This document shows positions 19,122 to 51,904 of a DNA stretch of 64,000 bases, in pieces. The position numbers were made by a program, and so were the translations under genes. Numbering within the stretch: position 1 is the stretch's first letter; the number at the start of each line of letters is the position of its first letter. The notes under the pieces were generated by a model, which did not search any database, was not told where the DNA came from, and saw only the letters and a program-made list of their open reading frames with translations. The DNA is taken from assembly GCA_965116875.1 (NCBI GenBank), contig OZ220733.1:1056001-1120000 (forward strand). Direction: 5' to 3'. Source of the DNA: Candidatus Latescibacterota bacterium (lineage in GTDB: Bacteria; Latescibacterota; UBA2968; GCA-2709665).

Positions 19122-19895
19122 CTATATCGCCAGCTGATGCGCCCGGGTGAAGCAGCGGCGGCGGACGACGTGCACCACGAACACGGAGCCGATGGCAGTG
19201 GCGGCGACGATCATCAGCATCACGATGATCTGATATTTGATGGCGGTCATCGGATCGGAGCCGGCCAGGATCTGACCCGTCATCATCCCGGGCAAAGACA
19301 CCAGGCCGACGGTCATCAGGGCGTTGATGGAGGGTATCATGCCGGCCTTCACCACGTCGCGGAGAATGGCGGCCGTGGCTTCCTGGTAGGTGGCCCCCAG
19401 ACAGAGGGCGAGTTCGATCCGATCCCGCTGATTGCGCAGGTCGGAGAAGAGGCGTTCCAGGGCGATCGTGACCGCGTTCATGGAGTTGCCGACAATCATG
19501 CCGCCCAGGGGGATGAAGTACTGCGGCGTGTACCAGGGCTTGACCTGAACGATGACTGCCGTTACCAGGATGGACACGGTGGTGTAGCTCGCTACCATCG
19601 AAATGAAGGTGGGCATGAAATAGGCCACCTCCTTTTCCTGTACCCGGCCGCGAATGGCGTGAGCGGCCCAGAAGACCATCCAGACGAAGAGGATCAGAAT
19701 CAGGAACGGGTCGTTGATCTGGAAGATGTACTTGAGAACGTAGCCCACGAGGAAGAGCTGCGCGAAGGTGCGCACCGTGCCCCACGCGAGGTCCCTTTCC
19801 AGGTTGAGCCGGAAGACAACCGAACCGGTTCCCGCGATCAGAACGAAAATGAGACACAGAAGCAGTTGCACGGGCGTGATCTCGATCAGGTTCAA
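19122..19895 (-). CDS. fetB: FetB/YbbM (UPF0014) ABC transporter permease
   Basis: RTFAQLFLVGYVL, PQYFIPLGGMIVGNSM, GLVSLPGMMTGQILAG-DP--AIKYQI; TTG start at 19895 after RBS ggagg. Confidence 0.88.
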   Translation of the reverse strand: MNLIEITPVQLLLCLIFVLIAGTGSVVFRLNLERDLAWGTVRTFAQLFLVGYVLKYIFQINDPFLILILFVWMVFWAAHAIRGRVQEKEVAYFMPTFISMVASYTTVSILVTAVIVQVKPWYTPQYFIPLGGMIVGNSMNAVTIALERLFSDLRNQRDRIELALCLGATYQEATAAILRDVVKAGMIPSINALMTVGLVSLPGMMTGQILAGSDPMTAIKYQIIVMLMIVAATAIGSVFVVHVVRRRCFTRAHQLAI

Positions 19896-20554
19896 GCGGA
19901 GACCTCCTGAAGACCGCCGTCGAGCCGGTAACGCCGGGCCGTGACACGAACCGGTATGAAGTCCAGGTGCGTCACCTGGACAATACCGATGTTCTGTTCG
20001 AGCGCGAGGCGTTCCAGCCATGATTCGACCACGGATCTGGACTCGGGGTCGAGGGCGGAAGTGGGTTCGTCGCAAAGGAGAAAACGGGGTTCGGACAGCA
20101 GCGTGCGAATCAGCGCGATCCGCTGTTTCTGTCCGACGGAAAGCGTCTCCGCGTCGTCGTCCAGATCCACGTCCTGAAGCAGGAAATCATCCAGGAGGGC
20201 GCTGAGCCGGTCATCGTCCGGCGGTTGTCGTTCACGTGCGGCTTTGAACGTGAACGACATGGTCAGGTTGGCACGCACGTTGCCACCGGCCATCGCGGGC
20301 GTCTGCTGGACGTAACCGATCATTCGCCGCAACTCCGTGACGTTGTGGCGAGTCACGGGTTCGCCGTCAAGCAGGATGTCGCCCGTTGAGGGTTCCTGCA
20401 GCCGGTTGGGCAACCTGAGGAAGCTGGATTTTCCGCTTCCCGACGGACCGTGGATGAGTACGAAATCGCCGCTGTCAACGGTGAGGTTCACACGTTGAAA
20501 CAGCGGTTTTTTTGTACCGTACTGAAGCGAAAGGTTTTTGATCTCGAGGCGCAT
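19892..20554 (-). CDS. fetA: FetA/YbbL-like ABC ATP-binding protein
   Basis: Start MRLEIKNL at 20554; GPSGSGKSS, LSVGQKQRIAL, LCDEPTSALD, VTH; directly upstream of fetB. Confidence 0.85.
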   Translation of the reverse strand: MRLEIKNLSLQYGTKKPLFQRVNLTVDSGDFVLIHGPSGSGKSSFLRLPNRLQEPSTGDILLDGEPVTRHNVTELRRMIGYVQQTPAMAGGNVRANLTMSFTFKAARERQPPDDDRLSALLDDFLLQDVDLDDDAETLSVGQKQRIALIRTLLSEPRFLLCDEPTSALDPESRSVVESWLERLALEQNIGIVQVTHLDFIPVRVTARRYRLDGGLQEVSA

Positions 20555-20577
20555 GGCTGCCTGAAGAGCGCGAACGG

Positions 20578-21963
20578 TTACACGTGCTTGAAGATTTCCA
20601 GCACGTCGATGATGCTCAGGCCCGTGTGATATCCGGGGTCCGCATCCGCGGTGGCGGGAATGACGGGCACGACCCGGCCGGATTCGTCTCGGGTCTGATA
20701 GGCCATCAGATGGAGGTCCGGACGAACGAAGTGCCTTGTGAAGGCGTTGTGGCACGCGCTGAATATACCGAGGGCGCTCTGTCGCTGTGCCGTGGACCGG
20801 GCGATCGAAAAGCAATACGTGGCGGCGCGCATCGTTTCGGGCAGGTTCCACCACGGCATGTCGGTATTGGCGGGTGCGCGGGAAACCAGGTCGACAGCCT
20901 TGCAGATGCCGCCGGGACCGGGCTGGAAACCCCCCGCGAACGTATGCGCGAGCAGCGCGGGCATATGCGCTTCCACGCCGGCGATTTCCTTCAGTTGTCC
21001 GGGTTCCGCCAGTGCGTTTTCTCTGACGGCGGAGGTGAATTTCAGCGTAAGTCCGATAAATTCGAGGACGTGGCCCGGATCGGAGAGGATCTTTCCGTCC
21101 TCCTCGAAAGGCGCGCCGTCGTCGTCCACGGCTTCCCAGAAATCGTACTCCCTGAGACGCGGGACCCGCCCGTTCAGATTGACGTAGGTCTTCATTTCGC
21201 GGCGGATGAGGCGCAGGCCCATTGCCACGCTGTCGGGAACGCGGTGTTCGGCCAGCATGGCCGCGGCGCCGATCTGAATCATGTACGCGCCGTGGGGATG
21301 GCGGCCGGGCCGGGGCGCCGTGGGGTTCCCGGGGTCCAGCGAAATCTGGTCGGTTACGAAACGCCCCCCGTGAATTGCGTCGTCCACGCGGCGGCAATAC
21401 GCCATGGCTTCCGCTTCGGCATCCTCCAATTCGAGGGTTCTCGCCGCGGCAACCATGCCCTTGGCGCCGAAGAGGTCGCTGAACCCGTAGCTCGTTTCCC
21501 CCGTGAGCTCCATCGCCCGGATCCCGCCTTCCTCGTCCAGCGTGAACGGGTCTCCCTCAGGGGTCATGAAAAAGGAAAGCCGGCCGGCGTTCCGGGCCCG
21601 GATTTCACGAAGCGCCTCGAGTACCTCGGCCGCGATGCGCTCCAGACGCTGCCGCAGTTCCGGCGCCAGGCCGTGGCGGCGCATCCACCGACAGTGCCCT
21701 GCCAGGGATTCGAGACCGCGCCCCTGAATCCAGCCGTAGACCGCGTTCGCCCCCCGAACGGGATCGCCACGCGGGAAGTCCTCCCCGGTGATGAGGTCCA
21801 GTTTGGTATCGATGAAAGGATAGTCCGGGGCGCGTTCATACCGGTCCGCAATGGCGGCCATCACCGCAAGCAGCATGGCGCGGTAGTCAGGCAGAACGGA
21901 CCCGACGTCGAGGGGCGAGGGACGTTCCGGGAGGAGGTTTCCCCGGTATACGAAATCGGGCAT
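20578..21963 (-). CDS. AGE-family (N-acylglucosamine 2-epimerase-like) alpha/alpha-barrel epimerase/isomerase
   Basis: GWIQGR, HPHG-YMI, DPGHVLEF, WWNLPE, DPGYH motifs. Confidence 0.75.
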   Translation of the reverse strand: MPDFVYRGNLLPERPSPLDVGSVLPDYRAMLLAVMAAIADRYERAPDYPFIDTKLDLITGEDFPRGDPVRGANAVYGWIQGRGLESLAGHCRWMRRHGLAPELRQRLERIAAEVLEALREIRARNAGRLSFFMTPEGDPFTLDEEGGIRAMELTGETSYGFSDLFGAKGMVAAARTLELEDAEAEAMAYCRRVDDAIHGGRFVTDQISLDPGNPTAPRPGRHPHGAYMIQIGAAAMLAEHRVPDSVAMGLRLIRREMKTYVNLNGRVPRLREYDFWEAVDDDGAPFEEDGKILSDPGHVLEFIGLTLKFTSAVRENALAEPGQLKEIAGVEAHMPALLAHTFAGGFQPGPGGICKAVDLVSRAPANTDMPWWNLPETMRAATYCFSIARSTAQRQSALGIFSACHNAFTRHFVRPDLHLMAYQTRDESGRVVPVIPATADADPGYHTGLSIIDVLEIFKHV

Positions 21964-22069: not shown

Positions 22070-22906
22070 CTACGACCAGACGTAGACCTCGCCGTCGTCG
22101 TTCGACCAGCCGATGAAGACGGCCAGGACGATTCTGGGGTCGGTTCCTTCGACCGCGGGGACCTCGTGGATGCAGCGCGTGTTGAAGAAGTAGAGATCGC
22201 CCGGTTCGAGTTCGACGCGGCAGCGTTCGACGTTGTTCAGCCGGGCGTACTCGTGAAAGGCATCCGCGGCGATATGGGATTCGACGTCTTCCGTCCACAG
22301 GCACCGGTGCAGGATGGCCTGGGTTGCCGGACCGGCCTGGGCGGCGTTCTGGAAGCAGACGACGCCGGCGAACTGGTGCTCGAACCGGGAGACCTCGTAA
22401 TCGAAGCGCTTTTCGCGCAGCGTGACGTGATCGATATGCGGCCGGTAGGTGTGGTGGGTGTAGTGGATGCGGAAAATGGCCGAACCGTAGAGCCGGCCGT
22501 CGGGTTCGCGGGCCGTCATCACCCGTTTGCCGGCGGCCAGGGCGCTGAGGCTGTCATAGATGACGTCGACCGGGTTGTCGAAGCCATCGAAGAGGTGTCC
22601 GAACAGGTCGTGGGTACGGACGGCGTCTTCGAAAAACCCCCGCTGGTCGTCACCCCTGTTTCCAAGGCTGGTGCCGACGTCGATTCGAGTGCGGGCGTCG
22701 TCGGAGTCGGTCTCAGCCGGGTCCCGCATCAGGCCGCGGTGAATGAAGCGACGGATCAGGCCCCTGCAATGGTCGGGATTGTAGGACCGCCGCAGAAGGA
22801 TGGCCGGTATCTCCGCCGTAGAAAGGGCGTGGAGCGGATTTGCGTACCTCGCGTTCACGGTTTCCAGGTCCGGACCGACCGGCAGCCAGGAATCGGCGGC
22901 GGGCAT
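22070..22906 (-). CDS. 2OG-Fe(II) oxygenase-like protein
   Basis: Start MPAADSW at 22906 after RBS ggagg (the track start lies in the MITE); PHID...LEPGDLYFFN--CIHEV...R facial-triad pattern. Confidence 0.7.
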   Translation of the reverse strand: MPAADSWLPVGPDLETVNARYANPLHALSTAEIPAILLRRSYNPDHCRGLIRRFIHRGLMRDPAETDSDDARTRIDVGTSLGNRGDDQRGFFEDAVRTHDLFGHLFDGFDNPVDVIYDSLSALAAGKRVMTAREPDGRLYGSAIFRIHYTHHTYRPHIDHVTLREKRFDYEVSRFEHQFAGVVCFQNAAQAGPATQAILHRCLWTEDVESHIAADAFHEYARLNNVERCRVELEPGDLYFFNTRCIHEVPAVEGTDPRIVLAVFIGWSNDDGEVYVWS

Positions 22907-22920
22907 ATCGGTTTCCTCCC

Positions 22921-23084
22921 AGAAGCTGTGTTGAAATTCACGGTGCGTTCCCGAGCGCGAGCGAAAAGGTGGCGGTCGAGGCGGGAAAATCCGCCCATAT
23001 TTGTCTATACGGGTGGATTTGACCAACGCGGACCGACGCATTTGCAGCCGCGCGAAGACCGCCGGGAATTTTAATACAGCTTCT
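22921..23084. mobile_element. MITE-like element, family B (164 bp), copy 1
   Basis: TIRs agaagctgtgttgaaatt / aattttaatacagcttct; near-identical full copy at 50869-51032. Confidence 0.85.
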
Positions 23085-23089
23085 TGACG

Positions 23090-23584
23090 TCAGGCCAGGT
23101 CTTTGAATTCGATGTGCAGGTATTCCCGGTATCCGGTGAGCCTGCGGTAGACGACCCCGGCGCTGTCGAACATACGTTTCGAAGCTCGAACGGAATCGGT
23201 CTCCGCGTATTTATCGGCCAGAAAGATGACTTCCCGGATGCCCGATTGAATGATGACCTTCGCGCACTCGTTGCATGGAAAGTGGGTCACGTAGATTGTG
23301 CAGTTGTAGAGGTTGGTGTCGATCTTGTTCAGGATCGCGTTGAGTTCGGCGTGGCAGATGTACGGATACTTGGTGTTTAGAAAGTCGCCCTCTCTTGCCC
23401 ACGGATATTCGTCGTCCGAGCAGCCGATGGGCAGGCCGTTATATCCGATTCCCACGATTTTCTTCTTCTCGTTGACGATACACGCGCCGACGCGGGTATT
23501 GGGGTCCTTGCTCCTCATGGCGGAAAGCAGCGCGACGCCCATGAAATATTCATCCCACGAGAGATAGTCTTCGCGTTTGTTCAT
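23090..23584 (-). CDS. dCMP deaminase
   Basis: SWDEYFM, RSKDPNT-VGACIV, GYNG-P, CHAELNAILN, FPCNECAK. Confidence 0.95.
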   Translation of the reverse strand: MNKREDYLSWDEYFMGVALLSAMRSKDPNTRVGACIVNEKKKIVGIGYNGLPIGCSDDEYPWAREGDFLNTKYPYICHAELNAILNKIDTNLYNCTIYVTHFPCNECAKVIIQSGIREVIFLADKYAETDSVRASKRMFDSAGVVYRRLTGYREYLHIEFKDLA

Positions 23585-23704
23585 TTTTAACCAGGTAAGT
23601 TGCCGGAGTGATGGAAACGCGCGGGCAAGGAAGAATCCGGACCGGGGCCTGCAAAGACAATATGCTCTTCAATGACGACATCCGCAACCGTTTCTTTGGC
23701 TCCG

Positions 23705-23740
23705 GTGTCCTGTCCCGGTAATTCCTCACGATTCGACCGC
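23705..23740. repeat. Left-end fragment of MITE family A at the RiPP cluster boundary
   Basis: gtgtcctgtcccggtaattcctcacgattcgacc matches 16887-16920. Confidence 0.7.
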
Positions 23741-23744
23741 GGGT

Positions 23745-24836
23745 TCAGGGCATCGCCGCCGCTTCCGGACCGACCCGCAGCAATCTGAGGCCGGCATATG
23801 CTTTGGCCTGAACGCCGCCAACGCCGACCGCCAGTTTCACGTGATTGAGTCCCTTGTGAAGGACATACGCACCTTCGTTACCGAATACCCGTTCCAGCCC
23901 GGGGAAGGAGCGCAAGCCATTCCCCTTTGCCGGCAGACAGAGTTCACGCGCCTCCATACGTTCCAGAACCGGCAGCCACGTCCTGACGCCCGTACTGAGC
24001 CAATCCCCCACCGGCCAGCGGCCCTTCCTTTCGCTTCGCGGAAACATCTCAAGTCCCAGACGCGGCCGCAAACCGCGAGCCGAAGCGTCGAAACAGGGTC
24101 GGAAGTATGGAAATACGTCCCGCCATTCATCAAGGGTCTTCATCGCATTTCGCACCGAACCGGGCCAACCGGAGCGCTCCAGGAAAACGGGCATTTCCTC
24201 CGGCCTGACGCCGTTGACAATCACACGCACGGCCCTGAAGGAGCGGCCGGGCATCGCTCCCACGTGATCCAGCCGCCCCCCCGGCGGGAGAGCGTTGACG
24301 ACACGTTCCACGACACGGCGCTCAACGGCGTCATCGTTCCATCCCACCGCGTTCGTCAACTCTGCAACCGCGTCTCCAGGAGAACAGACCTCTGAACCCT
24401 CCGGCGAAGGAGCGGGACGCAACCCGAGAAACAGGCCGGGATCCGGCGATGCTTCCGACTCGACTCCGGCGACGTCGTATTCGAGCATGATATCGTTATA
24501 CCTGGCGCTCACGGCAAATCCGGCCGGCGTCCGGGTTTCCGCAATCTCCGAGAGGAATCTTCCCAGCGCGGCTGCCGCGGAATCCTGCTGGGCCGTCTTT
24601 CCACGATCGACGAAGTGCCCGGGCAATCCCGGATGGCCCGGAAGCACGCGCACAGAGAAGTCGGCCGCGGGCGCGGGGTCGCCCAGCGCAAATTCGAAGA
24701 ATACCCTGTACAGGACCGGCCACCCGGGAAGTTCGCCGACCCCGCGAACCAGACGGTCCCATTCGGGACCGTCTACAAGCTCCCGTGGAATGAAACGGCG
24801 CGATTCCGGTGAAATCAGCCTGAGGGACCCGGACAT
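23745..24836 (-). CDS. Uncharacterised protein downstream of the NHLP precursor; candidate RiPP tailoring enzyme (possibly ABBA prenyltransferase-like)
   Basis: RBS aaggag then ATG at 24836. Motifs FFEFAL...ADFS, MLEYDV...PDPGLF, GAMPGR--RAVR, GWPG, PRLGLE, LC-P-K--GL--FPG, GLNHVKL...AKAY resemble proteins I recall beside NHLP/Nif11 precursors; fold assignment is inference. Confidence 0.6.
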   Translation of the reverse strand: MSGSLRLISPESRRFIPRELVDGPEWDRLVRGVGELPGWPVLYRVFFEFALGDPAPAADFSVRVLPGHPGLPGHFVDRGKTAQQDSAAAALGRFLSEIAETRTPAGFAVSARYNDIMLEYDVAGVESEASPDPGLFLGLRPAPSPEGSEVCSPGDAVAELTNAVGWNDDAVERRVVERVVNALPPGGRLDHVGAMPGRSFRAVRVIVNGVRPEEMPVFLERSGWPGSVRNAMKTLDEWRDVFPYFRPCFDASARGLRPRLGLEMFPRSERKGRWPVGDWLSTGVRTWLPVLERMEARELCLPAKGNGLRSFPGLERVFGNEGAYVLHKGLNHVKLAVGVGGVQAKAYAGLRLLRVGPEAAAMP

Positions 24837-24954
24837 CGTCAACTCCTTCGTCGTACCGCTACATTCGAATCCTCATGCCATTGCAGGCGGGAGGACGCTG
24901 CCCGCGCCCGTTCGGACCGGAACGGACGCCGGCAGGGTTCGCGTCGGACGTACA

Positions 24955-24987
24955 GAAAAAACCGGCGTCGCCCGAAGGCGGCGCCGG
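24955..24987 (-). terminator. Intrinsic terminator downstream of the precursor gene
   Basis: Stem ccggcgtcgcc/ggcggcgccgg with loop cgaa (TTCG on the minus strand), followed by a U-tract on the minus strand (plus-strand aaaaaa at 24956-24961). Confidence 0.7.
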
Positions 24988-25059
24988 GAAGATGAATCGT
25001 AGCGCCTGGTGGAATTCCTGATCCCGCCGCCTGATTTCACGGCGAATCTCCGTGAACGA

Positions 25060-25374
25060 TCACGGACCCCCCAACGGCACGTGGTATTCGTCGTGATGAT
25101 CATGACCCCATTCACAGTTCTCCGCGCCCCCGCCGCCAACGACCGCCGCCAACTCGTCCTCGCTCATCGCCTCCGGTCCGGTTCTCAGCGGGAGAACCAG
25201 GTGCGCGGTAGACAGGTTGTCTTCGTGGACTTCAACCGCGAAATTTTCCGGAATCTTAACGCCGAGCTCTTTTTCTATCGAGCCCCTGGGATCTTTCAGC
25301 AGACCGGCGCGAAACTCCGCGTCAAACGACGCTTTGAATACGACGTGTTCCTGCATTTCCTTCATGGTCTTCAT
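25060..25374 (-). CDS. NHLP-leader (proteusin-type) RiPP precursor peptide, 104 aa
   Basis: RBS aggagg then MKTMKEMQEHVVFKASFDAEFRAGLLKDPRGSIEKELGVKIPENFAVEVHEDNLSTAHLVLP...MSEDELAAVVGG|GGAENCEWGHDHHDEYHVPLGGP; KA--D-EFR--LL-DP, V-VHE, LVLP and the ELxxVxGG cleavage motif. Confidence 0.93.
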   Translation of the reverse strand: MKTMKEMQEHVVFKASFDAEFRAGLLKDPRGSIEKELGVKIPENFAVEVHEDNLSTAHLVLPLRTGPEAMSEDELAAVVGGGGAENCEWGHDHHDEYHVPLGGP

Positions 25375-25510
25375 CGTAGCCCTCCTATCCTGACGTGGTG
25401 GAATAAAGTGAACTTTTCGTGATACTCGATATAAATATCGTCTTAATCGTGATTTAATGGATCTATATCGATAATAAAAATGACCTTTTCGTGATAATAG
25501 CCACAACGCA

Positions 25511-25538
25511 AATATAACGAAGTTCTGTTGAATGTCAA
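25511..25538 (-). promoter_or_regulatory. Sigma70-type promoter for the precursor gene
   Basis: Minus strand TTGACA-N16-TATATT, followed by a very AT-rich leader in a GC-rich genome. Confidence 0.7.
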
Positions 25539-25588
25539 CCCCGGCGCCGGGACTCCCGGGAGGGCGCGGGGGCAGGTCCCTTTGCGAC

Positions 25589-28531
25589 TCAGGCGCTCGC
25601 CGACTGAACCGTCTGACGCCGCGCGAGACCGGCAAAGACCCCATTGCGCTCGATCAACTGCCGGTAGCTGCCGCTTTCCACGATACGCCCGGCGTCCAGC
25701 ACGAAGATTCTGTCAACGTCGCGGATCGTACTCAGCCGATGGGCAATGACGACACGAGTCACCCCCAGACCCTTCAGGGACGATTGTACCACCGCCTGCG
25801 CCCGGTTGTCCAGGGCGCTGGTGGCCTCGTCGAAAAGCAGAATGCGCGGCTTCCGGGCGAATGCGCGTGCGATCAGCAACCGCTGCTTCTGTCCTGCCGA
25901 AAGACCCACGCCGCCTTCCGGAAGGATCGTATGCATTCCCATCGGCATCGCCCGTATATCTTCTTCGAGCGCAGCCGCCTTGGCGGCAGCCCACGCCTCT
26001 TCATCGCTCAACGGAGACATCCCGGCGATATTCTCGAATATATTCCCCGCGACGATCTGGCCGTTCTGAAGGACGACGCCCAACTGCCTGCGGAGGGCCG
26101 TCAGGTCCAGGCTGGACAGGTCGTGCCCGTCCAGAAACACCGTCCCTGACTCCGGACGTTCAAAACCGAGCAACAGGCGGTAGACGGTTGATTTTCCGCA
26201 GCCGGAGGGTCCCACGAACGCGACGTAGTCGCCCTGCCGGATTCGAAACGATACGCTGTCGATCGCCTTTGACGCTTCCGGACCGTATCGAAAGTTCACG
26301 CTTGAGAATTCCAGTTCGCCCTTTATGTCCGAAAGCTCGATGCGTCCGTACGCGGTCTCGGGCGTCGCATTGAAGATCGGTCGTACGCGTTCGAGAAGCG
26401 GGATCACGGCGATTGCGGTTGCCGCGGCGGAGGTGAGGGCAAACACTGCGGCGGTGAGCTGGCCGAACGCGGCATTGAAGGATAGAAAACCCGCCAGGTC
26501 GAACGTGGATCCTCTGGGATCCAGGATGGCGTGCTGCACCGACTCGAAGATGACGATAAGCGCCAGCGGATGGAACATGCCGACAACGACGTATTGCGCC
26601 GCGGTCCACTTCAGCGCGGAGAAGGCGGCCCGCTTCTGTTCGGCGAAACGCCGGGCCCAGCGCGCCAGCGCGAAGGTCTCGGAATTGGCGACCCGAAGCT
26701 TGGCAAGGCCGGTGATCAGTTGAAATACGAACCCGTTGATCGCTCCCTGAATGCGAAATACGTCCCGATAATGACGAAGCTGCCCCCGAGCCAGAAACCA
26801 TGCCGCACCCACCAGGACGAACAGCATCAGGCAGACGTACAGAGCGAGCGACCGGCTGTAGTAGAAGAGCAATGCGAGGTTGAATACGGAAAAGATGCCG
26901 CCCATGGCGGCGCCCACGGCCGCGAAGGAGATGATGCGCCTGATCTCGCTGATTCCGTTCGCGCGGTTTTCAAGGTCCCCCACCGTGTAGTCGCGAAAAA
27001 ACGGTGCGCGAAGCGCAATCAGCCGGCTCCAGATGGCGGACTGGAGGCGCTCGTCGACGCGACCCTCGATCCTCAGCAGGGCGATTCCGCGCACAATCTC
27101 GAAGACTGCGTTCCCGAAAGCAGCCAGTATCAGCGCGATCAGTGCGACAGACCACAGCGAGATTTCTGCCCGGGGAATGATGCGGACGAGCAACTCACCG
27201 GTAAGTATCGGCGTCAGGAGTGACACCATCCCGCCCAGGATGCCCACCAATAACACCGTACGAAGATCCTCCCCGCGGCGATGCAATGAGAATCGAAGTA
27301 CGGACCCGCCCGACTCGATGCGGTTGGGCAGTGGCGCGTAGAAAGCCAGACCGCCCGGGGCGATGCCCGCCGCGTTGCTTTCGGTGACCACGAGAGATGT
27401 ACCCGTGACCGGATCGATCGCCCGGTACGCGCCGCGGTTGTCGGAAAGAAGCGCGAGCGGCCGGTCCGCGCCGTCTTCTCCCGCGGTGAAACCCACCAGG
27501 GAAGGGCCGTCACGCCGCCACCATCCCGGCTCCAGCGAAATCCATCGCGTCCGGATCCCCGACCTGCGGGCAATCCCCTCCACAGCCTCCACGGACGTCT
27601 GTGCTTCCCCGGACTTCGAGGGAATCTCCAGCGAGGCCCCGCAGGAAGAAGCCACGATGGCTGCCGCCGCCTGAAGAGGCGTTCCGTCGCTGCCGGCGGC
27701 GATCGCGCTGTCGCCGGGCCCCGCCAGAATCCTCTCAAATCCGCCGAGCGCCCGCGTAACCGATGTTCTCCTGACTTCGTGGGCGTTGCGGCGGCGGACC
27801 TGCAGGTTCTCGGCAGACTCAGACTCGGCAAGAATGGCGAATTCCAGGATTCGTGCGCTGAAACCCTCAAACGCTTCCCAGAACCGGTCCGTGAGAAGGG
27901 CCGTTGGCGTATAGAATGCGGACACCGTCGCGTCGGCGTCGATCTGCATCCATGTTCGCTCTGTAACCGGCACGAGCGGACCGCCCGCCGCCACGGCCAG
28001 GGCTTCACGGCCTGCAAGGCGCATCGGCGCATCGGCGCCGACCCAGATGACGTCCATGTGCTGGGCGCTGAGCATGCTGCCGGCCGCATAGGAAACGTCC
28101 GGCTCCGCCTCCAGCAACCGCGCACCCCGGGGCGGCGGCCGATCCCGAACCACGAATTCCGAGATCCGGGAAATCCATTCGTCGATCCAGCTGGTCGCGG
28201 CAAGATCGAAGTCGTCCGTAGCGACGCCGTCCCGCTCTCCCCGGACGATGACCGCGTCGAGAGACGGTACGGCGAGGAATCCGAATGTGCGATGAGGCTG
28301 ATCCGGATGCCTGACCGTGTCTGCGCCAAAGGCCATTTCTCCGGCCGGAACACGGGCGACGAAGTTCCGGCGGCCCGCGGCTTCGCTGTCTTCGAGTTCG
28401 ACCGCGAATACGTCCAGATATCCCCGTTCAACGAAGTAGACGACGGCCGTGTCGTCCATCGGGAACGGCCGGTGAGCGCCGGTTTCGATCCGGACGCCGC
28501 GTATGCGTTCGATGAGCGGCGTTTCAGGCAT
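25589..28531 (-). CDS. NHLP bacteriocin export ABC transporter permease/ATPase with N-terminal cNMP-binding-like extension
   Basis: N-terminal VYFVERGYLDVF...GEMAFG; L---WWRRDGP-L; TMD; GPSGCGKST, LSAGQKQR, FDEATSALDN. Confidence 0.9.
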   Translation of the reverse strand: MPETPLIERIRGVRIETGAHRPFPMDDTAVVYFVERGYLDVFAVELEDSEAAGRRNFVARVPAGEMAFGADTVRHPDQPHRTFGFLAVPSLDAVIVRGERDGVATDDFDLAATSWIDEWISRISEFVVRDRPPPRGARLLEAEPDVSYAAGSMLSAQHMDVIWVGADAPMRLAGREALAVAAGGPLVPVTERTWMQIDADATVSAFYTPTALLTDRFWEAFEGFSARILEFAILAESESAENLQVRRRNAHEVRRTSVTRALGGFERILAGPGDSAIAAGSDGTPLQAAAAIVASSCGASLEIPSKSGEAQTSVEAVEGIARRSGIRTRWISLEPGWWRRDGPSLVGFTAGEDGADRPLALLSDNRGAYRAIDPVTGTSLVVTESNAAGIAPGGLAFYAPLPNRIESGGSVLRFSLHRRGEDLRTVLLVGILGGMVSLLTPILTGELLVRIIPRAEISLWSVALIALILAAFGNAVFEIVRGIALLRIEGRVDERLQSAIWSRLIALRAPFFRDYTVGDLENRANGISEIRRIISFAAVGAAMGGIFSVFNLALLFYYSRSLALYVCLMLFVLVGAAWFLARGQLRHYRDVFRIQGAINGFVFQLITGLAKLRVANSETFALARWARRFAEQKRAAFSALKWTAAQYVVVGMFHPLALIVIFESVQHAILDPRGSTFDLAGFLSFNAAFGQLTAAVFALTSAAATAIAVIPLLERVRPIFNATPETAYGRIELSDIKGELEFSSVNFRYGPEASKAIDSVSFRIRQGDYVAFVGPSGCGKSTVYRLLLGFERPESGTVFLDGHDLSSLDLTALRRQLGVVLQNGQIVAGNIFENIAGMSPLSDEEAWAAAKAAALEEDIRAMPMGMHTILPEGGVGLSAGQKQRLLIARAFARKPRILLFDEATSALDNRAQAVVQSSLKGLGVTRVVIAHRLSTIRDVDRIFVLDAGRIVESGSYRQLIERNGVFAGLARRQTVQSASA

Positions 28532-28535
28532 GATG

Positions 28536-30755
28536 TCAGTCCGACATGACCAGGGTCCTGTAAAGGCCCTCTTCCGCGATCAGGCTGTCGTGGGTGCCGC
28601 GCTGGACGATGCGGCCCCGGTCGAGGACGACGATCTGGTCCGCGTCCCGGATGGTACTCAGCCTGTGGGCAATGATGAGGCATGAACATCCGCGGCGTCG
28701 AAGCCGGTCGTCGATCTCGACCTCGGTAATCGGATCCAGCGCCGCGGTGGCCTCGTCGAGCACCAGTACGGCGGGATTCCTCACAAGCGCACGCGCGATT
28801 TCCAGGCGCTGCCGCTGACCGCCGCTGAAATTGCGCCCTCCCTCGCTGACGGGGGAATCGTATTTCATGGGCCTTGCAGAGACGACGTCATGGATTGCGG
28901 CATCCCTGAGCGCCTGTACCACGTCACGTTCTTCAATATCGGGATCCCACAACGAGACGTTTTCCCGCACGCTGGCCTCGAACAGTACGACCTCCTGGTC
29001 CACGTAGGATACGATTTCGGCGAAACGGGAGGGAGGGATGTCCTCGAATTCCTGCCCGTCGATGCGCACGGTTCCGGACCAGGGCGTCAGCAGACCGCAA
29101 ACGATCCTCGCGACAGTCGACTTTCCGCTTCCCGACGCGCCTACCAGCGCCACGCGGCGGCCCGGCCCGATGGTAAGACTGAAATCCTCGATGAGGGGCG
29201 GATCCGTGGCACTGTAGCCGAACGTCACACCTTCGAGATCGACGAACCCTCGGGGCGGGGGTGCGTCCGGTACAGGCTCTGCCGTATGGATGCCCCTGAG
29301 CGTTCGCTCGTCGGGGGCGTAGTTCAGAACGTCGTCGAGCCGACCGATATCAGCCCTGATCATCTGCAGACTGGCGCCGAACCGAACCAGACCTTCAACA
29401 GGTCGAGAAAAACTCAGCGTGAGACTCTGAAAGGCGATCAGTCCGCCGATGGATAGCGCCCCGTCGAGGATACGAATTCCTCCGTATCCCAGGACGATGA
29501 TGGACGTGAGCGCCGAGAGGAGAACGGGCGCGACATTGGCGATGGTTGAAACGGTGTCGAGGCTCTGCTGGGCGCGAAGCGCATTGGCGTGGATTCCGGA
29601 CCATCGGGCGAAGAAATCGTCCTCTGTACCGTTGGCCTTGAACGTCTCGATGATCCGGATGCCGTTTATGGAGGCGCCGGCAACCCTGCCCCTTTCTTTG
29701 AGAAGCCTCCGGTTGGCGTTGTCGCGGGCGCGCGCCGCCAAATGCAGCACGATCAGATTTATGGCGACCATCGCCAACGCCATCAACGTGAGCGGAACGT
29801 CGTACGAAACCATGACCAGTGCATAGAACACCATCGTGAATACGTTTATCGCATTGACGGCCAATTCGCCGGAAAGCAACCGCGCGACGGTGTCATTCGA
29901 CGCCACGCGGCTGGCGATGTCACCGGCGTAGCGCTGGCTGAAGAACAACATCGGCAACGTTGCGACGTGCCAGAAAAAGCGCACGGTCGAAATAACGGAC
30001 AGCTTGGTCTCCATCCTTGCCAGGAGGATACGCTGCAGCCAGGTCAGCGCGCCCTGGACAACGGCCGCGAAGGCCAGTCCAATCAGCATCGGAGACACCC
30101 AGGCGCTGTTCTGCCCGATCAGTACGTCGTCGATGAATACCTTGATCAGGGTCGGGACGGCCACGCCGGGCACAACGAGAGCCAGGGTCGCCAGCGCCGC
30201 GAACGCAAACGGACTCCCCGCGTCGCCAAAGCGGGCGTGCAGTCGCCGAATCAGATTGGGCCGCGGTCCCCCCGGACTGAACCCGGACGAGGGCGCGAAA
30301 CCGAAGCAGACGCCCGCGAAGCCCTCGACGAACTCCTGCATCGTGATCCTTCGAGGGCCTTCGCCGGGATCGTTGATATAGACTCTGTCGCCCTTGATCC
30401 CTTCGAGAACGACAAAATGGTTGAACTCCCAGAAGACCACCATGGGAAACGGAACGTCGAACAATTGCTCGTGCTGACTGCGGAAACCCCGGGCGATGAG
30501 GCCGTATTCCCGGGCCGCTTTCAACATATTGGCGGCATTGGCGCCGTCCCTGGAGACGCCGCAGCGTACCCGCAGCGCTTCGAGGGGCACCCATCGTCCG
30601 TGATAGGCGAGAATGATGCCAAGACATGCGGCGGCGCACTCCGTGGTCTCCATCTGCAGGATCGTCGGCGTCCTGAAACGTCCGCCCCGATCGGACCGCA
30701 GGTTCGGACGCAGATCGGCGTGGCGGTCTAATGACTCAGTTTTTCTTTGATCCAT
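28536..30755 (-). CDS. NHLP-family export ABC transporter, C39 peptidase/permease/ATPase
   Basis: RTPTILQMETTECAAACL (catalytic Cys), CGVSRDG, FWEFNHFVVLEG (His), YINDP (Asp); GASGSGKST, FSGGQRQRLEIARAL, LDEAT. Confidence 0.95.
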   Translation of the reverse strand: MDQRKTESLDRHADLRPNLRSDRGGRFRTPTILQMETTECAAACLGIILAYHGRWVPLEALRVRCGVSRDGANAANMLKAAREYGLIARGFRSQHEQLFDVPFPMVVFWEFNHFVVLEGIKGDRVYINDPGEGPRRITMQEFVEGFAGVCFGFAPSSGFSPGGPRPNLIRRLHARFGDAGSPFAFAALATLALVVPGVAVPTLIKVFIDDVLIGQNSAWVSPMLIGLAFAAVVQGALTWLQRILLARMETKLSVISTVRFFWHVATLPMLFFSQRYAGDIASRVASNDTVARLLSGELAVNAINVFTMVFYALVMVSYDVPLTLMALAMVAINLIVLHLAARARDNANRRLLKERGRVAGASINGIRIIETFKANGTEDDFFARWSGIHANALRAQQSLDTVSTIANVAPVLLSALTSIIVLGYGGIRILDGALSIGGLIAFQSLTLSFSRPVEGLVRFGASLQMIRADIGRLDDVLNYAPDERTLRGIHTAEPVPDAPPPRGFVDLEGVTFGYSATDPPLIEDFSLTIGPGRRVALVGASGSGKSTVARIVCGLLTPWSGTVRIDGQEFEDIPPSRFAEIVSYVDQEVVLFEASVRENVSLWDPDIEERDVVQALRDAAIHDVVSARPMKYDSPVSEGGRNFSGGQRQRLEIARALVRNPAVLVLDEATAALDPITEVEIDDRLRRRGCSCLIIAHRLSTIRDADQIVVLDRGRIVQRGTHDSLIAEEGLYRTLVMSD

Positions 30756-31975
30756 GGCAGAACAAGCGCGGCCGGCGATTGGGTGGACGCCCGGATTTCG
30801 ACGGTTGCAAGCGTTCCGGGAGTGATTTCAAGATGAGTGGCTTGCGGCGACGTCCACGCGAAGCCGCTCCGTGTCGTCGCATCCGGCGTGAGCGCGATTC
30901 GCGCCGGATATGGCGGACCGGATGCGGAGAAGGTCCCGGCAAGCTCCTGGTTCCGGAGTACGGCGACCATGCCGTTCAGGCTCGCCGGAAACTCGGACAC
31001 GTACTCTACGGTTCCGATCATGGAGCCGTATTCCTCGCGTCGGACGGTGGCCGGCGTTACGAGAACGGACATGCCCTCCTTGACGCTCTTGCCATCCAGC
31101 GCGGAGACGTACGAGAGCACGTCCAGGCCTTCTCCGCCGGTCTCAATGCTCAATACGGACTCTCCAGGGCCGAGCGTCACGCCAATCTGCGCCTTGATCT
31201 CGATGATCCTCCCGGAGACCGGAGCGCGAATTCGCCAGGTCTCGATGGTCACCCTGAGTTCGCTGACGTCCATCTCGGCTTTCAGGAGTTCGCCTTTGGC
31301 GTGAGAGAGCCGGGAATTGATGCCGCTCCGTCGCCGGACGTCGTCCTCGTCGAGTGCGTCCCGCCGGCGCAGCACTTCGAACAGATTCTGCTGCAGGACG
31401 CTCAGCGCCTGTTCGCTTCGCTCCACGGCCGTCCGATCGATCATCCGCTGCGCGAACAGTTTCCGGTCTTCCTGAAGGCGCATGCCGGCTTTTTCTTTCA
31501 GCTCGCGGTTTATGCGTTCCATCTCGTCCAGCCGGTCCCGCTGCCTGGCGAGGTTCTCCGCCGCGAGCCTGTTCTCCTCATTGGTTTCGGTGATGCGATC
31601 CCTGAGTTCCTCCTTGTGCTCGGCCACGAGCGCGACGGCGCTCTTCAGCCGTTCACTCGTCTCCGCGTCGAAGATCTCAGCCACCACGTCGCCTTCCTGA
31701 ACCTGCTGTCCGACGGCGACCGCGATTCGCGTCAGTCTGCCGCCGCCCGGAGACGCCGCGTCGAATACCATGCCCTTGCGACTCAGAAAAATGCCCTCGG
31801 CTTCCACGTAGATGGAAATCTCGCCCCAGAACCCCCACGCCACGACAGCGCCGGTCAGCGCCAGGAGGACGCAGAGCCACAGCCATGTCATCGGCGTTGT
31901 CACGTTCAGCGCGCGGTCCAGGTGTTCGGGGGTCCGCAGGCGATCAAGCGCCTTGTTTCGATCGGATTCGTTCAT
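30728..31975 (-). CDS. NHLP bacteriocin system secretion protein (HlyD-family membrane fusion protein)
   Basis: ALDRLRTPEHLD---V, N-terminal TM, coiled coil, IRAPVSGRI, P-TVRREEYG, SGF-WTS. Confidence 0.93.
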   Translation of the reverse strand: MNESDRNKALDRLRTPEHLDRALNVTTPMTWLWLCVLLALTGAVVAWGFWGEISIYVEAEGIFLSRKGMVFDAASPGGGRLTRIAVAVGQQVQEGDVVAEIFDAETSERLKSAVALVAEHKEELRDRITETNEENRLAAENLARQRDRLDEMERINRELKEKAGMRLQEDRKLFAQRMIDRTAVERSEQALSVLQQNLFEVLRRRDALDEDDVRRRSGINSRLSHAKGELLKAEMDVSELRVTIETWRIRAPVSGRIIEIKAQIGVTLGPGESVLSIETGGEGLDVLSYVSALDGKSVKEGMSVLVTPATVRREEYGSMIGTVEYVSEFPASLNGMVAVLRNQELAGTFSASGPPYPARIALTPDATTRSGFAWTSPQATHLEITPGTLATVEIRASTQSPAALVLPWIKEKLSH

Positions 31976-32124
31976 GTCTGAGAAGGATGGTAAACCGGAA
32001 GAATGTGATTTTTTCGTGTACCCATTTGATGCCAGCGAATGTAACGCAAATCGTCAGCCGATGTCAATCAGATTTCGAGTCCGCGCCGTTCGATGGATCG
32101 ACCCGTGAAACCCGCGTAAATAAC

Positions 32125-32157
32125 AAAAAGACCACCCGCATATGGGGTGGTCTTTTT
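32125..32157. terminator. Bidirectional intrinsic terminator between the TBDR and the RiPP exporter
   Basis: aaaaagaccaccc-gcatatg-gggtggtcttttt; A-tract and T-tract flank a GC stem. Confidence 0.8.
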
Positions 32158-32380
32158 CAATCGGCAATCATCCGTCTGAAACGGCCGGCGTGGAGACGTC
32201 CGTTGTTCTCCACGACTATTTCAGGGATTTATTATGACATACAGGCGATAGCTGCGGTCCTTTTGGTGACTTATTCATGATACTCGGTAAAGGCCGGGAT
32301 GCACAATCCTGCATGAAACGCGGTCACGGCTCCGTGATGTTCCCCCGGAGATACCCGGCTGTCATCTCGATCGCTTTGGG

Positions 32381-35300
32381 CTATCGCCCGAGGTGATACG
32401 TAACGGCCAGCTTCAGCCGCCGGCCCTTGGGATCGTGCGTGAAGCCGTCGTAGGCCTGCTCGATATTCACGAGAGGGGGCCTGGCGTCCAGCAGATTCAT
32501 TCCGGACAGCGCGATATTCAACCCGTTCGGCAGGTTCCACAGGAACGTCACGTCCCATGTTACATACGATTCGATGGTACCGAAAATGCTCTTGATATTC
32601 GAATTATCGGAGGCCATCGACCCGCGGTCTTCATAGGACGAAATGTAGTTGAGGTAGGTCGCGAGACTGTAGTCCTGCCAGTAGTAGCTGCTGGAAATCC
32701 GTCCCTTGAACTTGGGAAGCGACGTTGCGATGGGATTGCCGAAATTCAGGTAGCCGGCGGCGTCCGCTTCCTCCTGCAGCACCAGGCCGCCCAGCATCAA
32801 CGCCTTTGTCTCGTACGCCAGCGTATACGTGCCTTCCAGGCCGGCCGTGAACAGGCCCGCTCCCTGCGGGACCCGCGTACCCAGATGGAGATCGATCCCC
32901 GAGGTCTTGAGCCCCGGCCAGTTGACGATATCCACCTGCACCCGCTCGAGTTCCGACGCCGCGCACGTGCCGGTACCAATCCCGTCCGGGCACACGATGA
33001 ACTGCTTCAGGGCATCTTTATTGGCTTCGTCCGCGTACAGGGCGGTAATGGCGCCGTGGGGCATGGAACCGATCACGTCGCTGAAATCGTAACTCCAGTA
33101 ATCCAGTGTCGCCTCGAAACCCGTTTCGGTGACCAGGGCGAGCCCCGCGTTAAAGGTGAACGCCCGTTCGGGTTTGAGGTCCTTGCTCCCGATTCTGTCC
33201 ACCGTTTGGTAGGCGCCCGTCTCGTTGATCCATTCGAGCGTGGAAAGCGGGCTTTCATTTACGTCGTCCAGCGACGGCGTGCGGAACGTCGTCTGCACCG
33301 AGCCGCGCAGGAATACGGATTGCTCCGACGATTCCATCAGCTGGTAGCGCCACCCGAATTTGGGATCGAAACTGCTCGCCACGTCGTGGAACTCGTAGTT
33401 GGCGGCGAGTTGCACGTCGAACGACTCGCCCAGGCTGAGGGGCGTTTCCGCAAAGAAGCGATGCACCGTCTGGGATTCATCGTAAGGCCGATGCACATTG
33501 GTGAACGCATAGGGTCCGAATCGGTCCTCCGCCGAGCAGTTCCTGTCGCCCACAACCGGACAGGGGTTGATGGTGACGTCGCCCTCGTCGTTGGGGTCCC
33601 CGCTGGCATTGAACAGCCGGAACTGGTAGCCCGCCGCGTAACTGGCGACGTCCTCGACCCAGGTCCCCGTCAGCGTCGCGTCCGCGACCAGCATGTCGGC
33701 TGTACTCTGCATGTCCACTTCCTGGTTGAGCCAGAGTCGAAGCTCCTCACTGTTGGCAAGCGCGGCGCGGTAGTTCGGATTCGCCCGGGTTTCGTACCCC
33801 GAACCGTACTGGTCCGTGAACTCGATGGCGTTGCCGAAGGGATTGTAATACTTGCAGTTGCCCTGTCCCGCCACCTGACCGCTCAGCGGTCCGAGGCGCA
33901 TCCCTGCCAGCGAGGCGCGGTCCGCCACCACGTCGACGCCGCAGCGCGGCCCCCCGTAGCCCCGGAAGCCGAGGAAGAGCCGCTCGATATACACGCCCGG
34001 CAGGTTGTAGTTGCCCTCGGTGCGGGAATAAGAGAGACCGAGGTCGAAGTGGTTCTCCCGATCGCCGAACGCTACGAAGTCCCCACTCGCGGAGGCCGCC
34101 ATTCGCCAGGTGGCGGCGTCTCGGCCCAGCGTGCGGCCCGGTCCCGAGTTTCCGAAGGGACGACCGTTGAAATACCAGTTTTCGCCGGCCTGGCACGCCT
34201 CGTAGTATTCGTCGGTTGGCTCGGATCCGTAGTCATCGCAGAACGCGCGACGGCCCGGGTGGTCGGGCGCGACCTCCATGATGCTCGTGTCCGTGAGGGG
34301 AAACGGCGGATACGAAGGCGTCGTATACCACTCCGGAATATCCGCCCGCGCCCACAGGGCCTCAACGTGATACTCCGTGCCGTTATCCAGCTTCCCGTTG
34401 ATCTCGGCAAAAGCGCGGGTGTGACTCATTTCTTCAATCAGATTCTCATATTGCTGATACCGGAACCGGCATGTCCAGGACTCACGGAATCCGCCGAATT
34501 CCTCGCACCTCGGGGCGTGAATGGCGGCGGTCCACGGGGCGGGCGCACCGATGGCGAAGGTGCCGGGATTTCCCAGGCTCGACCATCCCAGGCGCTGCCC
34601 CCCGCCGTGCCATGGCTGCAGCAGGTAGTCCCTTTCCCAGGACGGCAACGCCTGGCGTCCCCTCCATTCGGCGGAGACAACCGCATGGGCCTCTCCGAGT
34701 TTCCCGCCCCATATCGCACCGGCGTTGGTATCGCCGGCGCCGGGAAAGTACTCGTGCGCGGCGGAAACCTCGAAGCCCTCGAAATTCCTTCGCGTGAGGA
34801 AGTTGGCCACGCCGCCCACGGCGTCCGACCCGTATATGGCGGAAGCCCCTTCCTTGAGCACTTCAACCCGCTCGATGGCAATCGAGGGAATCACGTTGAC
34901 ATCGACGAAGCGTCCACCGATCAGCCGCGCCGGGACGTAGGTCTGGCGGCGGCTGTTAATCAGCACGAGGGTGCGCGACGCCCCCAGGCCCCGCAGGTTG
35001 ACGTTCGCGATGCTTTCCGAAAGTGTGGCGGCCTGGCCTGAATTGTACCAGCTGCTGCGTTCCCCGATCACGCCGTGGCTCGCGCCGAGATTCTTGAAGA
35101 AATCGACGGCCTGCGGAGACCCCTGCTCCGCCATCTCTTCGCGCCCGACAGCCACAACCGCGTACGTCTGGTTGATGGGGGGTTCCTTGAACGCAGTGCC
35201 GGTCACCACAAGCTCGTCCATGTAGAGCAGGGACAGATCCATGCTCAACGCAACGCGAAGCGTCGCACCCGCGGTGACCGTGATCGTGCGGGGTTCGCTC

Positions 35301-50868: not shown

Positions 50869-51032
50869 GGAAGCTGTTTTAAAATTACCGGTGAGTTCCC
50901 GAGCGCGAGCGAAAAAGTGGCGGTCAAGGCGGGCAAATCCGCCCATATTTGACTATACGGGTGGGTTTGACCAACGCCGACCGGCGCTTTTGCAGCCGCG
51001 CGAAGACCGCTGGGAATTTTAAGACAGCTTCT
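50869..51032. mobile_element. MITE-like element, family B (164 bp), copy 2
   Basis: TIRs ggaagctgttttaaaatt / aattttaagacagcttct; colinear with 22921-23084. Confidence 0.85.
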
Positions 51033-51904
51033 TACGTGAGCAGGGGTCTCATGGCGGCTTTGAGTTCGGCCATTTCAGGTTCCGTAAGGGGCATTACGGG
51101 TTTGCGGCACGGGCCCACGGGTCTGCCGGAAAGATTCGTGGCGGCCTTTACGGACGCGTTGTAAACGTGATTCCAGAAAAAGCGGTTGGCGGGAAACATC
51201 CGGCCCCAGAGGTCTCTTGCCTCGGAAAGCTGCCCGCCGGCAACCAGATTGTAGAGATCGACGGCTTCTTTGGGCATGGCGTTGACCGCTCCCCATACGC
51301 AGCCGGGGCACCCCGCAACCAGGCTGAAGAAGGCGATCGGGTCCCCGCCGTTGAAGACCTCGGCGCCGATGGCCAGCAGTTCCTGAATTCGCAGAATATC
51401 CGCCATGCTGTCCTTGATGTAATGGATGTTCTCCACTTCCATCAGGCGCCTGAAGAACGCGGGCGTGATATCGATTCCCGTGTGGACCGGAATGTTGTAG
51501 ACCATAACGGGCGTACTGACGGCGTTGGAGATTTCCGCGTAGTGGTCGTACACGCCTTCCATGTCGGGACCTTCGAAGTACGGCGGCAGCACGAGGAGGC
51601 AGTCCGCGCCTGCGCCCTCGGCGTGCCGGGCGTACTCGATCGTCTCCGACGTGCTCACCGCGGAAGCCATGGCGACGAAGTCGACCCTGCCGTCGATGTG
51701 TCCGGCAGCCAGTTCGACCAGCCGCCGGCGTTCCTCCGGTCGCAGACACGCGAATTCGCCCGTGCCGCCGTTGATGAGGATGCTGTGCACGCCCGCTTCG
51801 AGCATGGAATCGATATGATTTCCAAGCGCGGATTCGTCGATCCGTTCGCCGTCATCCGTAAACGGTGTGCACAATGCCGCGCAGATGCCCCTGAGTTTTT
51901 TCAT
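51032..51904 (-). CDS. Dihydrodipicolinate synthase / N-acetylneuraminate lyase-family aldolase
   Basis: Start MKKLRG at 51904; TPF, GGTGEF, PPYF, VYNIP, YIKDS Schiff-base Lys. Confidence 0.9.
   Translation of the reverse strand: MKKLRGICAALCTPFTDDGERIDESALGNHIDSMLEAGVHSILINGGTGEFACLRPEERRRLVELAAGHIDGRVDFVAMASAVSTSETIEYARHAEGAGADCLLVLPPYFEGPDMEGVYDHYAEISNAVSTPVMVYNIPVHTGIDITPAFFRRLMEVENIHYIKDSMADILRIQELLAIGAEVFNGGDPIAFFSLVAGCPGCVWGAVNAMPKEAVDLYNLVAGGQLSEARDLWGRMFPANRFFWNHVYNASVKAATNLSGRPVGPCRKPVMPLTEPEMAELKAAMRPLLT

Follow-up and report, generated by a model that had tools for sequence, protein, structure and literature searches.

What is made at a locus where the gene of a protein that no domain model recognizes lies beside the gene of a peptide precursor? 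The question is raised by 64,000 nucleotides from the genome of a Candidatus Latescibacterota bacterium (assembly GCA_965116875.1, contig OZ220733.1, positions 1,056,001 to 1,120,000), a stretch that we refer to as the window and whose own numbering is used throughout. A first-pass annotation, made from the letters of the window alone, had singled out one gene as a candidate maturase of a ribosomally made, post-translationally modified peptide (RiPP) with resemblance to ABBA-type prenyltransferases (PTs). We suggest, at a probability of roughly 0.7, that the product of this gene is a leader-guided peptide tryptophan (Trp) prenyltransferase that acts on the adjacent NHLP precursor. The two genes central to the argument are as follows.

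23745..24836, minus strand: candidate peptide prenyltransferase with an ABBA (PT-barrel) fold, 363 amino acids (AlphaFold2 model, fold matches, and family alignments)
25060..25374, minus strand: NHLP-leader RiPP precursor, 104 amino acids (TIGR03793 leader_NHLP, 58.7 bits with a cut-off of 50.9; Pfam NHase_alpha, 1.1e-8)

The enzyme, its predicted fold and its conserved residues

The gene at 23745..24836 is real. Our coordinates are the same as those of the first-pass annotation, and homologues are abundant. The open frame, free of stops, is 23745..24842 on the minus strand and encodes 365 amino acids from a TTG. The ATG at 24836, giving 363 amino acids, is the likely start because a GAAGGAG Shine-Dalgarno sequence lies 6 nucleotides upstream and close homologues are also 363 amino acids long. 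At E ≤ 1e-3, 111 homologues are present in one database; all are "hypothetical" or nameless, and Pfam assigns no domain to any of them. When 1.84 billion representatives of 50%-identity clusters were searched exhaustively with HMMER, 905 family representatives were recovered at E ≤ 1e-3, of which 262 reach ≤ 1e-10 and 83 reach ≤ 1e-30. Counts of this order in two databases indicate that the open reading frame (ORF) is not due to chance. The source genome, a single 5.45-Mb contig, has one copy. A "conserved" cluster of 470-amino acid ORFs near the enzyme genes of relatives was set aside as it consists mostly of antisense ORFs of the enzyme gene.

The enzyme is predicted to have the shape of a PT barrel, and we hold this with high confidence. 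An AlphaFold2 model built on an alignment of 62 family members (A1) has a predicted local distance difference test score of 88.0 and a predicted template modeling score of 0.90. It is composed of five alpha-alpha-beta-beta units, into which the alternating helix/strand pattern noted at first pass resolves, and has the five repeats and ten-stranded antiparallel barrel that define the fold. Among the matches listed in a Foldseek search of the PDB, all are ABBA aromatic prenyltransferases and 38 reach E ≤ 1e-3; they include AmbP1, AnaPT, DMATS1, IptA, FgaPT2, TleC, MpnD, EpzP, NphB, CloQ, CymD, and FunA. The ABBA-type barrel, which had been proposed from family resemblance, was in this way recovered by a structure search of the predicted model. 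Among 19 structural matches, the top scores (14.1–16.4) belong to DMATS-type indole enzymes, followed by Orf2/CloQ types (12.5–13.0) and the cyanobactin enzymes PagF, PatF, and DciF (11.3–12.2).

Searches at the level of sequence gave no name to the family. Pfam (E ≤ 0.01) and NCBIfam returned no match for the 363-amino acid enzyme, and it matches none of the models Trp_DMAT (PF11991), PTase_Orf2 (PF11468), and DUF5838 (PF19156). The source genome has no match to PF11991; PF11468 has none in the 168 genomes of the phylum, though the control genomes gave no match either. Two family profiles yielded chance matches only among PDB sequences (a PARP14 macro domain, E 0.7–1.9; NifA, E 0.33). A profile search of a 5.8-billion-protein set found only the same family and one Holophagales protein (2e-11, no Pfam label), and none of 10 remote members that were looked up has a protein name. 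In a language-model search for look-alikes, clusters bearing Trp_DMAT, DUF5838, and PTase_Orf2 scored 0.88–0.89, which we take as a lead only.

All motifs quoted at first pass are present in the translation: FFEFAL (46–51), ADFS (58–61), MLEYD (117–121), P-x-PGLF (131–136), GAMPGR (193–198), AVR (202–204), PRLGLE (258–263), NHVKL (331–335), and AKAY (344–347). Residues E48, L51, D59, Y120, D121, P133, R198, R204, L219, G261, E263, W287, L308, H332, K334, K345, and Y347 are invariant in A1, and R259 is conserved at 97% in the family. A wider alignment (A3; 86 sequences, down to 21% identity) retains an invariant Y347 and has E48, D59, E119, D121, R198, R204, W287, K304, H332, K334, and K345 at 90% or more. 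The terminal H-x-K...K-x-Y arrangement to which the first-pass annotation had drawn attention (H332, K334, K345, and Y347) is thus invariant in A1 and kept at 90% or more in A3.

In predicted strands, E48/R50, R259/G261/E263, H332/K334, and K345/Y347 follow i/i+2 spacing opposite hydrophobic faces. Such alternation is the pattern expected of side chains on one face of a modeled barrel. In ABBA enzymes, such as NphB, FgaPT2, and PagF, a ring of Lys, Arg, and Tyr inside the barrel holds the prenyl diphosphate. By analogy, the conserved basic and aromatic residues of the enzyme would correspond to this ring.

Precursors of the family and the probable acceptor residue

The leader of the precursor ends in AAVVGG and the core, GGAENCEWGHDHHDEYHVPLGGP, has one Trp (W89). 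His, Asp, and Glu abound in the core, which has four His, one Tyr, and one Cys but lacks Ser and Thr. The ATG of the precursor gene is preceded by AGGAGG, and the enzyme gene begins 224 bp after the precursor gene. The core is identical from AENC onward in all five close relatives, whose enzymes are 79–83% identical to that of the source. There is a single cognate precursor in the source genome. Outside the window, the NHLP-leader profile has one more match, a weak one (E 3e-6), in a 207-amino acid open frame (G000:C1:3567632-3567808), which may encode a true nitrile-hydratase alpha subunit or another protein of the NHLP clan.

Association of enzyme and precursor is conserved across phyla. One genome per species was scanned for relatives of the enzyme, which yielded 59 loci. 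By record title, these are from Latescibacterota, Gemmatimonadota, Chloroflexota (SAR202 and Dehalococcoidia), Nitrospinota, Alpha- and Gammaproteobacteria, Binatia, Acidobacteriota (Vicinamibacterales), and Spirochaetia. An NHLP precursor is within 8 kb of the enzyme relative in 56 of 59 loci. In 45 loci, the precursor ends no more than 700 bp upstream on the same strand, and in 11 further loci one gene lies between the two. Genes for the C39 peptidase-ATP-binding cassette (ABC) transporter, the second ABC protein, and HlyD recur, and no further tailoring enzyme is general.

Clustering groups the intervening gene of the 11 loci as a FAD_binding_4 oxidase, with the Pfam match taken from one representative (L051:6370-7752). 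This cytokinin-dehydrogenase-like oxidase of ∼460 amino acids occurs in loci of Vicinamibacterales (L042–L045, L049–L051, L053, L054, L057, and L059) and also in L006, L007, and L010 of SAR202/Dehalococcoidia. It may carry out a second tailoring step in those clades, given its position between precursor and enzyme genes in Vicinamibacterales.

Numbers of genes vary among loci; eight have two or three enzyme paralogues, and there are 1 to 14 precursors per locus. L027, L029, L032, L034, L036, and L040 have arrays of 10–14 NHLP precursor genes beside one to three enzyme paralogues. Leaders within arrays are near-identical and cores are hypervariable, mostly with NW, DW, or TW at the end. These arrays resemble natural combinatorial libraries, such as those of prochlorosins, and suggest that the enzyme accepts nearly any sequence ahead of Trp.

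Trp is the constant residue of the cores. We found 168 precursor ORFs and parsed 164 cores after dropping four that are truncated or degenerate; parsing of cleavage sites is approximate. Trp is present in 162 of 164 cores and is the last residue in 104. Among 114 unique cores, 112 have Trp (22.2 are expected if Trp occurs at 1.4%, its frequency in proteins of the window) and 71 end in it. His, Tyr, and Cys are present in 42, 33, and 10 unique cores, respectively. In an alignment of 48 precursors, no core column other than that of Trp (W89) is conserved at 90% or more. Because Trp is common to cores of the family and indole prenyltransferases head the structural matches, we consider Trp a likelier acceptor than His or Tyr. 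The first-pass annotation had offered Trp, Tyr, and His as acceptors and a lipidated, His-rich peptide as a possible product; of these acceptors, Trp stands, while His and Tyr have become less likely.

The five-gene island and its surroundings

The two genes belong to an island, the other features of which are listed here.

23590..32384, no strand assigned: island of 8.8 kb with exactly five genes (HlyD, C39-ABC, second ABC, precursor, and enzyme), delimited by comparison with genus-mates
24956..24987, minus strand: terminator-like hairpin between the precursor and enzyme genes (10 pairs, one mismatch, UUCG loop, then U6)
25511..25538, minus strand: sigma-70-like promoter before the precursor gene (TTGACA-16-TATATT, 11 of 12 matches; consensus match only)
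25589..28531, minus strand: second ABC protein, an NHLP bacteriocin export ABC transporter permease/ATPase subunit (TIGR03797, 811.7 bits with a cut-off of 709.4)
28536..30755, minus strand: C39 peptidase-ABC transporter (TIGR03796, 995.2 bits with a cut-off of 853.3; Pfam Peptidase_C39, 9.6e-32)
30728..31975, minus strand: HlyD-type secretion adaptor of NHLP systems (TIGR03794, 245.8 bits with a cut-off of 156.2)

Borders of the island were drawn from five genus-mates that lack the enzyme gene. In all five, homology ends at 23584–23589 and restarts at 32385–32388, with ∼260–440 bp in between, and the gene for a TonB-dependent receptor adjoins a dCMP-deaminase gene. In the source genome, the island sits between these same two genes. 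Its distribution is patchy (6 of 15 genomes of the genus, including the source, and 9 of 168 of the phylum). Matches to TIGR03793, TIGR03794, TIGR03796, and TIGR03797 all exceed curated cut-offs, which identifies an NHLP (proteusin-type) export system. As judged from its domains, the C39-ABC transporter is predicted to cut the leader at the GG site and export the peptide. The island is a compact mobile cluster for producing and secreting a ribosomal peptide; with five genes in all, it has no tailoring gene other than that of the enzyme.

The genes for the dCMP-deaminase-like, WelO5-like, and 461-amino acid proteins downstream and the TonB-dependent receptor upstream were considered as members of the cluster and rejected, as they are adjacent in all five genus-mates without the island. 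Since receptor and deaminase genes are neighbors even where there is no island, proximity of the receptor is no evidence for a siderophore-like role.

The hairpin between the precursor and enzyme genes may be an attenuator or read-through terminator that sets the ratio of precursor to enzyme. Its fold energy (-20.7 kcal/mol; z of -1.3 relative to shuffles) is not unusual for this GC-rich DNA, and a scan for consensus terminators did not list it.

Two metagenomes of sponges (runs X3 and X4) have contigs 95–99% alike. In a metatranscriptome library, also from sponge (X9), contigs lie over the precursor gene (25074–25381) and the region upstream of it, as well as over the enzyme gene at its 5' end (24754–24912). 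They are a weak hint of transcription, with DNA carry-over possible; cover is based on contigs only, and uncovered parts, such as 23600–24738, carry no meaning.

Several features beyond the island were also recorded. A repeat of ∼165 bp at 22921–23085 lies between the dCMP-deaminase and WelO5-like genes and recurs at ∼50870–51037. The source genome has 41 near-full-length matches at 87–100% identity, counting the copy at 22921–23085. Five genus-mates have ∼14–41 matches per genome, partial ones included, and four of them are without a copy at this site. The ORF called at 22070–23041 takes its N-terminus from the repeat. The WelO5-like 2-oxoglutarate/Fe(II) oxygenase itself is at 22070–22917 on the minus strand (Pfam WelO5, 4.2e-20), and its H-I-D motif (YRPHIDHV), read by eye, suggests the hydroxylase type rather than a halogenase. 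Further downstream on the same strand, an ABC ATPase ORF (19892–21397; 501 amino acids from a TTG) overlaps the 461-amino acid ORF (20578–21963) by ∼800 bp. The ABC ATPase gene probably starts much later than called because the ATPase domain begins only at residue 301. Together with a UPF0014 protein (19122–20075), this ATPase presumably may form a FetAB-like pair.

Proposed mechanism, rival explanations and related systems

The proposed mechanism would begin with a precursor made from its own promoter, while the intergenic hairpin may hold the enzyme level under that of the precursor. The enzyme would engage the long structured NHLP leader and, by analogy with MppC (described below), set W89 at the mouth of the barrel. 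Inside the barrel, a prenyl diphosphate, which may be dimethylallyl, geranyl, or farnesyl diphosphate, would be held by R198, R204, R259, H332, K334, K345, and Y347. D59 and D121 are possible Mg2+ ligands, and E48 is a possible partner of the indole N-H. Ionization of the diphosphate would give an allylic cation that alkylates the indole. The C39-ABC transporter would then cleave after GG and, with the help of the second ABC protein and HlyD, export the product, which is predicted to be a His/Asp/Glu-rich peptide of 21–23 residues bearing prenyl-Trp. When the enzyme and precursor were predicted as a complex, both supplied as alignments, scores were 0.39, 0.33, and 0.32, and one unrelated control scored 0.52, so that these values do not bear on binding either way.

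Some observations weigh against a Trp prenyltransferase. None of the 62 members of A1 (E ≤ 5) nor 54 remote representatives (E ≤ 1) match a PT family of Pfam, and neither Pfam nor profiles run on PDB sequences link the enzyme at the level of sequence to any known prenyltransferase family. Three of the 59 loci (L047, L052, and L058) have no precursor within 8 kb. Two of the 114 unique cores, both from locus L046, are without Trp. Last, Trp is internal in the source clade (CEWGH; 14 residues from the C-terminus), whereas it is terminal in most of the family.

These observations give some room to other explanations. The undetectable sequence relation to characterized prenyltransferases, coupled with the fact that a common fold does not fix function, would suit a barrel that carries out a different chemistry on the Trp peptide, with another diphosphate-activated or a non-isoprenoid donor, or by cyclization; we give this a small chance of being correct. 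It is also improbable that the enzyme is a prenyltransferase with a different acceptor in the source clade, where the core offers four His, a Tyr, a single Cys, and a terminus. Across the family, the first three residues are present in 42, 33, and 10 of the unique cores compared to 112 for Trp, and no core position other than that of Trp is conserved. A barrel can also be inactive, as exemplified by PatF of the patellamide pathway. A catalytically dead barrel that binds the leader or peptide as a chaperone, scaffold, or immunity protein is very improbable here, because a dozen residues with charged or aromatic side chains do not vary across phyla, at overall identities of 27–83%, and because it leaves the conserved Trp unexplained when the enzyme is the only tailoring candidate of the island. 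The first-pass proposal is supported as to fold and RiPP setting, and we favor leader-guided prenylation of Trp over these alternatives.

RiPP prenyltransferases known to us are the leader-independent cyanobactin enzymes, the helical ComQ/PalQ enzymes, and a lanthipeptide enzyme added in 2025, MppC. The enzyme shares with the cyanobactin F-family (PagF, PatF, and DciF) an ABBA barrel and a place in a RiPP pathway. Its top structural matches, the DMATS-type enzymes (MpnD, CymD, DMATS1, IptA, and FgaPT2), differ in acting on free Trp, indolactams, and diketopiperazines rather than leader-bearing peptides. The enzyme is only 6–14% identical to them in structural alignments and, as noted, has no match to PF11991. 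Full-text searches of one literature library found no description of an ABBA enzyme paired with NHLP precursors.

Three systems come closest. MppC, of the mpp cluster of Moorena producens, is a soluble ABBA RiPP prenyltransferase that needs its whole, long, structured Nif11 leader and geranylates C5 of Trp82 in a lanthionine-cyclized core (Wakeel, McShan, Agarwal, JACS 2025; PMC12715784). Both loci encode an ABBA-fold enzyme with a long structured-leader precursor that has a candidate Trp acceptor. But the MppC precursor is of Nif11 type and its core is first cyclized by LanM, whereas the leader here is NHLP and Ser and Thr are absent from the core. Neither LanM nor any other cyclase is encoded by the island, and a lanthionine macrocycle of the MppC type is not the substrate indicated by its genes.

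In Paenibacillus alvei, the NHLP precursor PalX has a conserved Trp at its C-terminus, and PalQ prenylates this residue at C3 (Miyata, Ito, Fujinami, Adv Sci 2023; PMC10853753). The family resembles PalQ/PalX in its NHLP precursors, whose Trp is conserved and mostly at the C-terminus, and in a single adjacent enzyme gene. However, PalQ belongs to the all-helical isoprene-synthase (ComQ-like) superfamily and is not an ABBA barrel, making it an analogue and not a homologue. In srp clusters, which are widespread among sponge symbionts of several phyla, an LCCCW core is first cyclodehydrated by YcaO, and the flavin halogenase SrpI then brominates the Trp at the C-terminus of SrpE, the NHLP precursor (PMC10858898). 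The likeness is again an NHLP precursor with Trp, which in srp is the C-terminal site of modification. The core here is GGAENCEWGHDHHDEYHVPLGGP and not LCCCW, and Pfam finds no YcaO or halogenase domain among the island genes. The family would join the enzyme fold of MppC, the substrate type of PalX, and the habitat of srp clusters.

Prenyl lipidation alters the membrane affinity and bioactivity of peptides, and enzymes for it are wanted as biocatalytic tools. A tentative and rather doubtful extension of our proposal is that the family represents a very large RiPP class not yet described: linear, NHLP-led peptides with a prenylated Trp as the sole fixed feature, made by symbionts of many phyla in sponge-type metagenomes from natural combinatorial libraries in which a locus has as many as 14 hypervariable precursors and as many as three enzyme paralogues. 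Given a strictly conserved core with abundant His, Asp, and Glu and a lone Cys, the product of the source genome would then be a lipid-anchored, metal-binding peptide; we know of no prenylated RiPP with metal binding as its function. By fold and context, the large unannotated family would carry leader-guided Trp prenylation over to linear NHLP peptides, and the five-gene island, with one precursor, one enzyme, and an exporter, offers a minimal and clean system for studying the chemistry.
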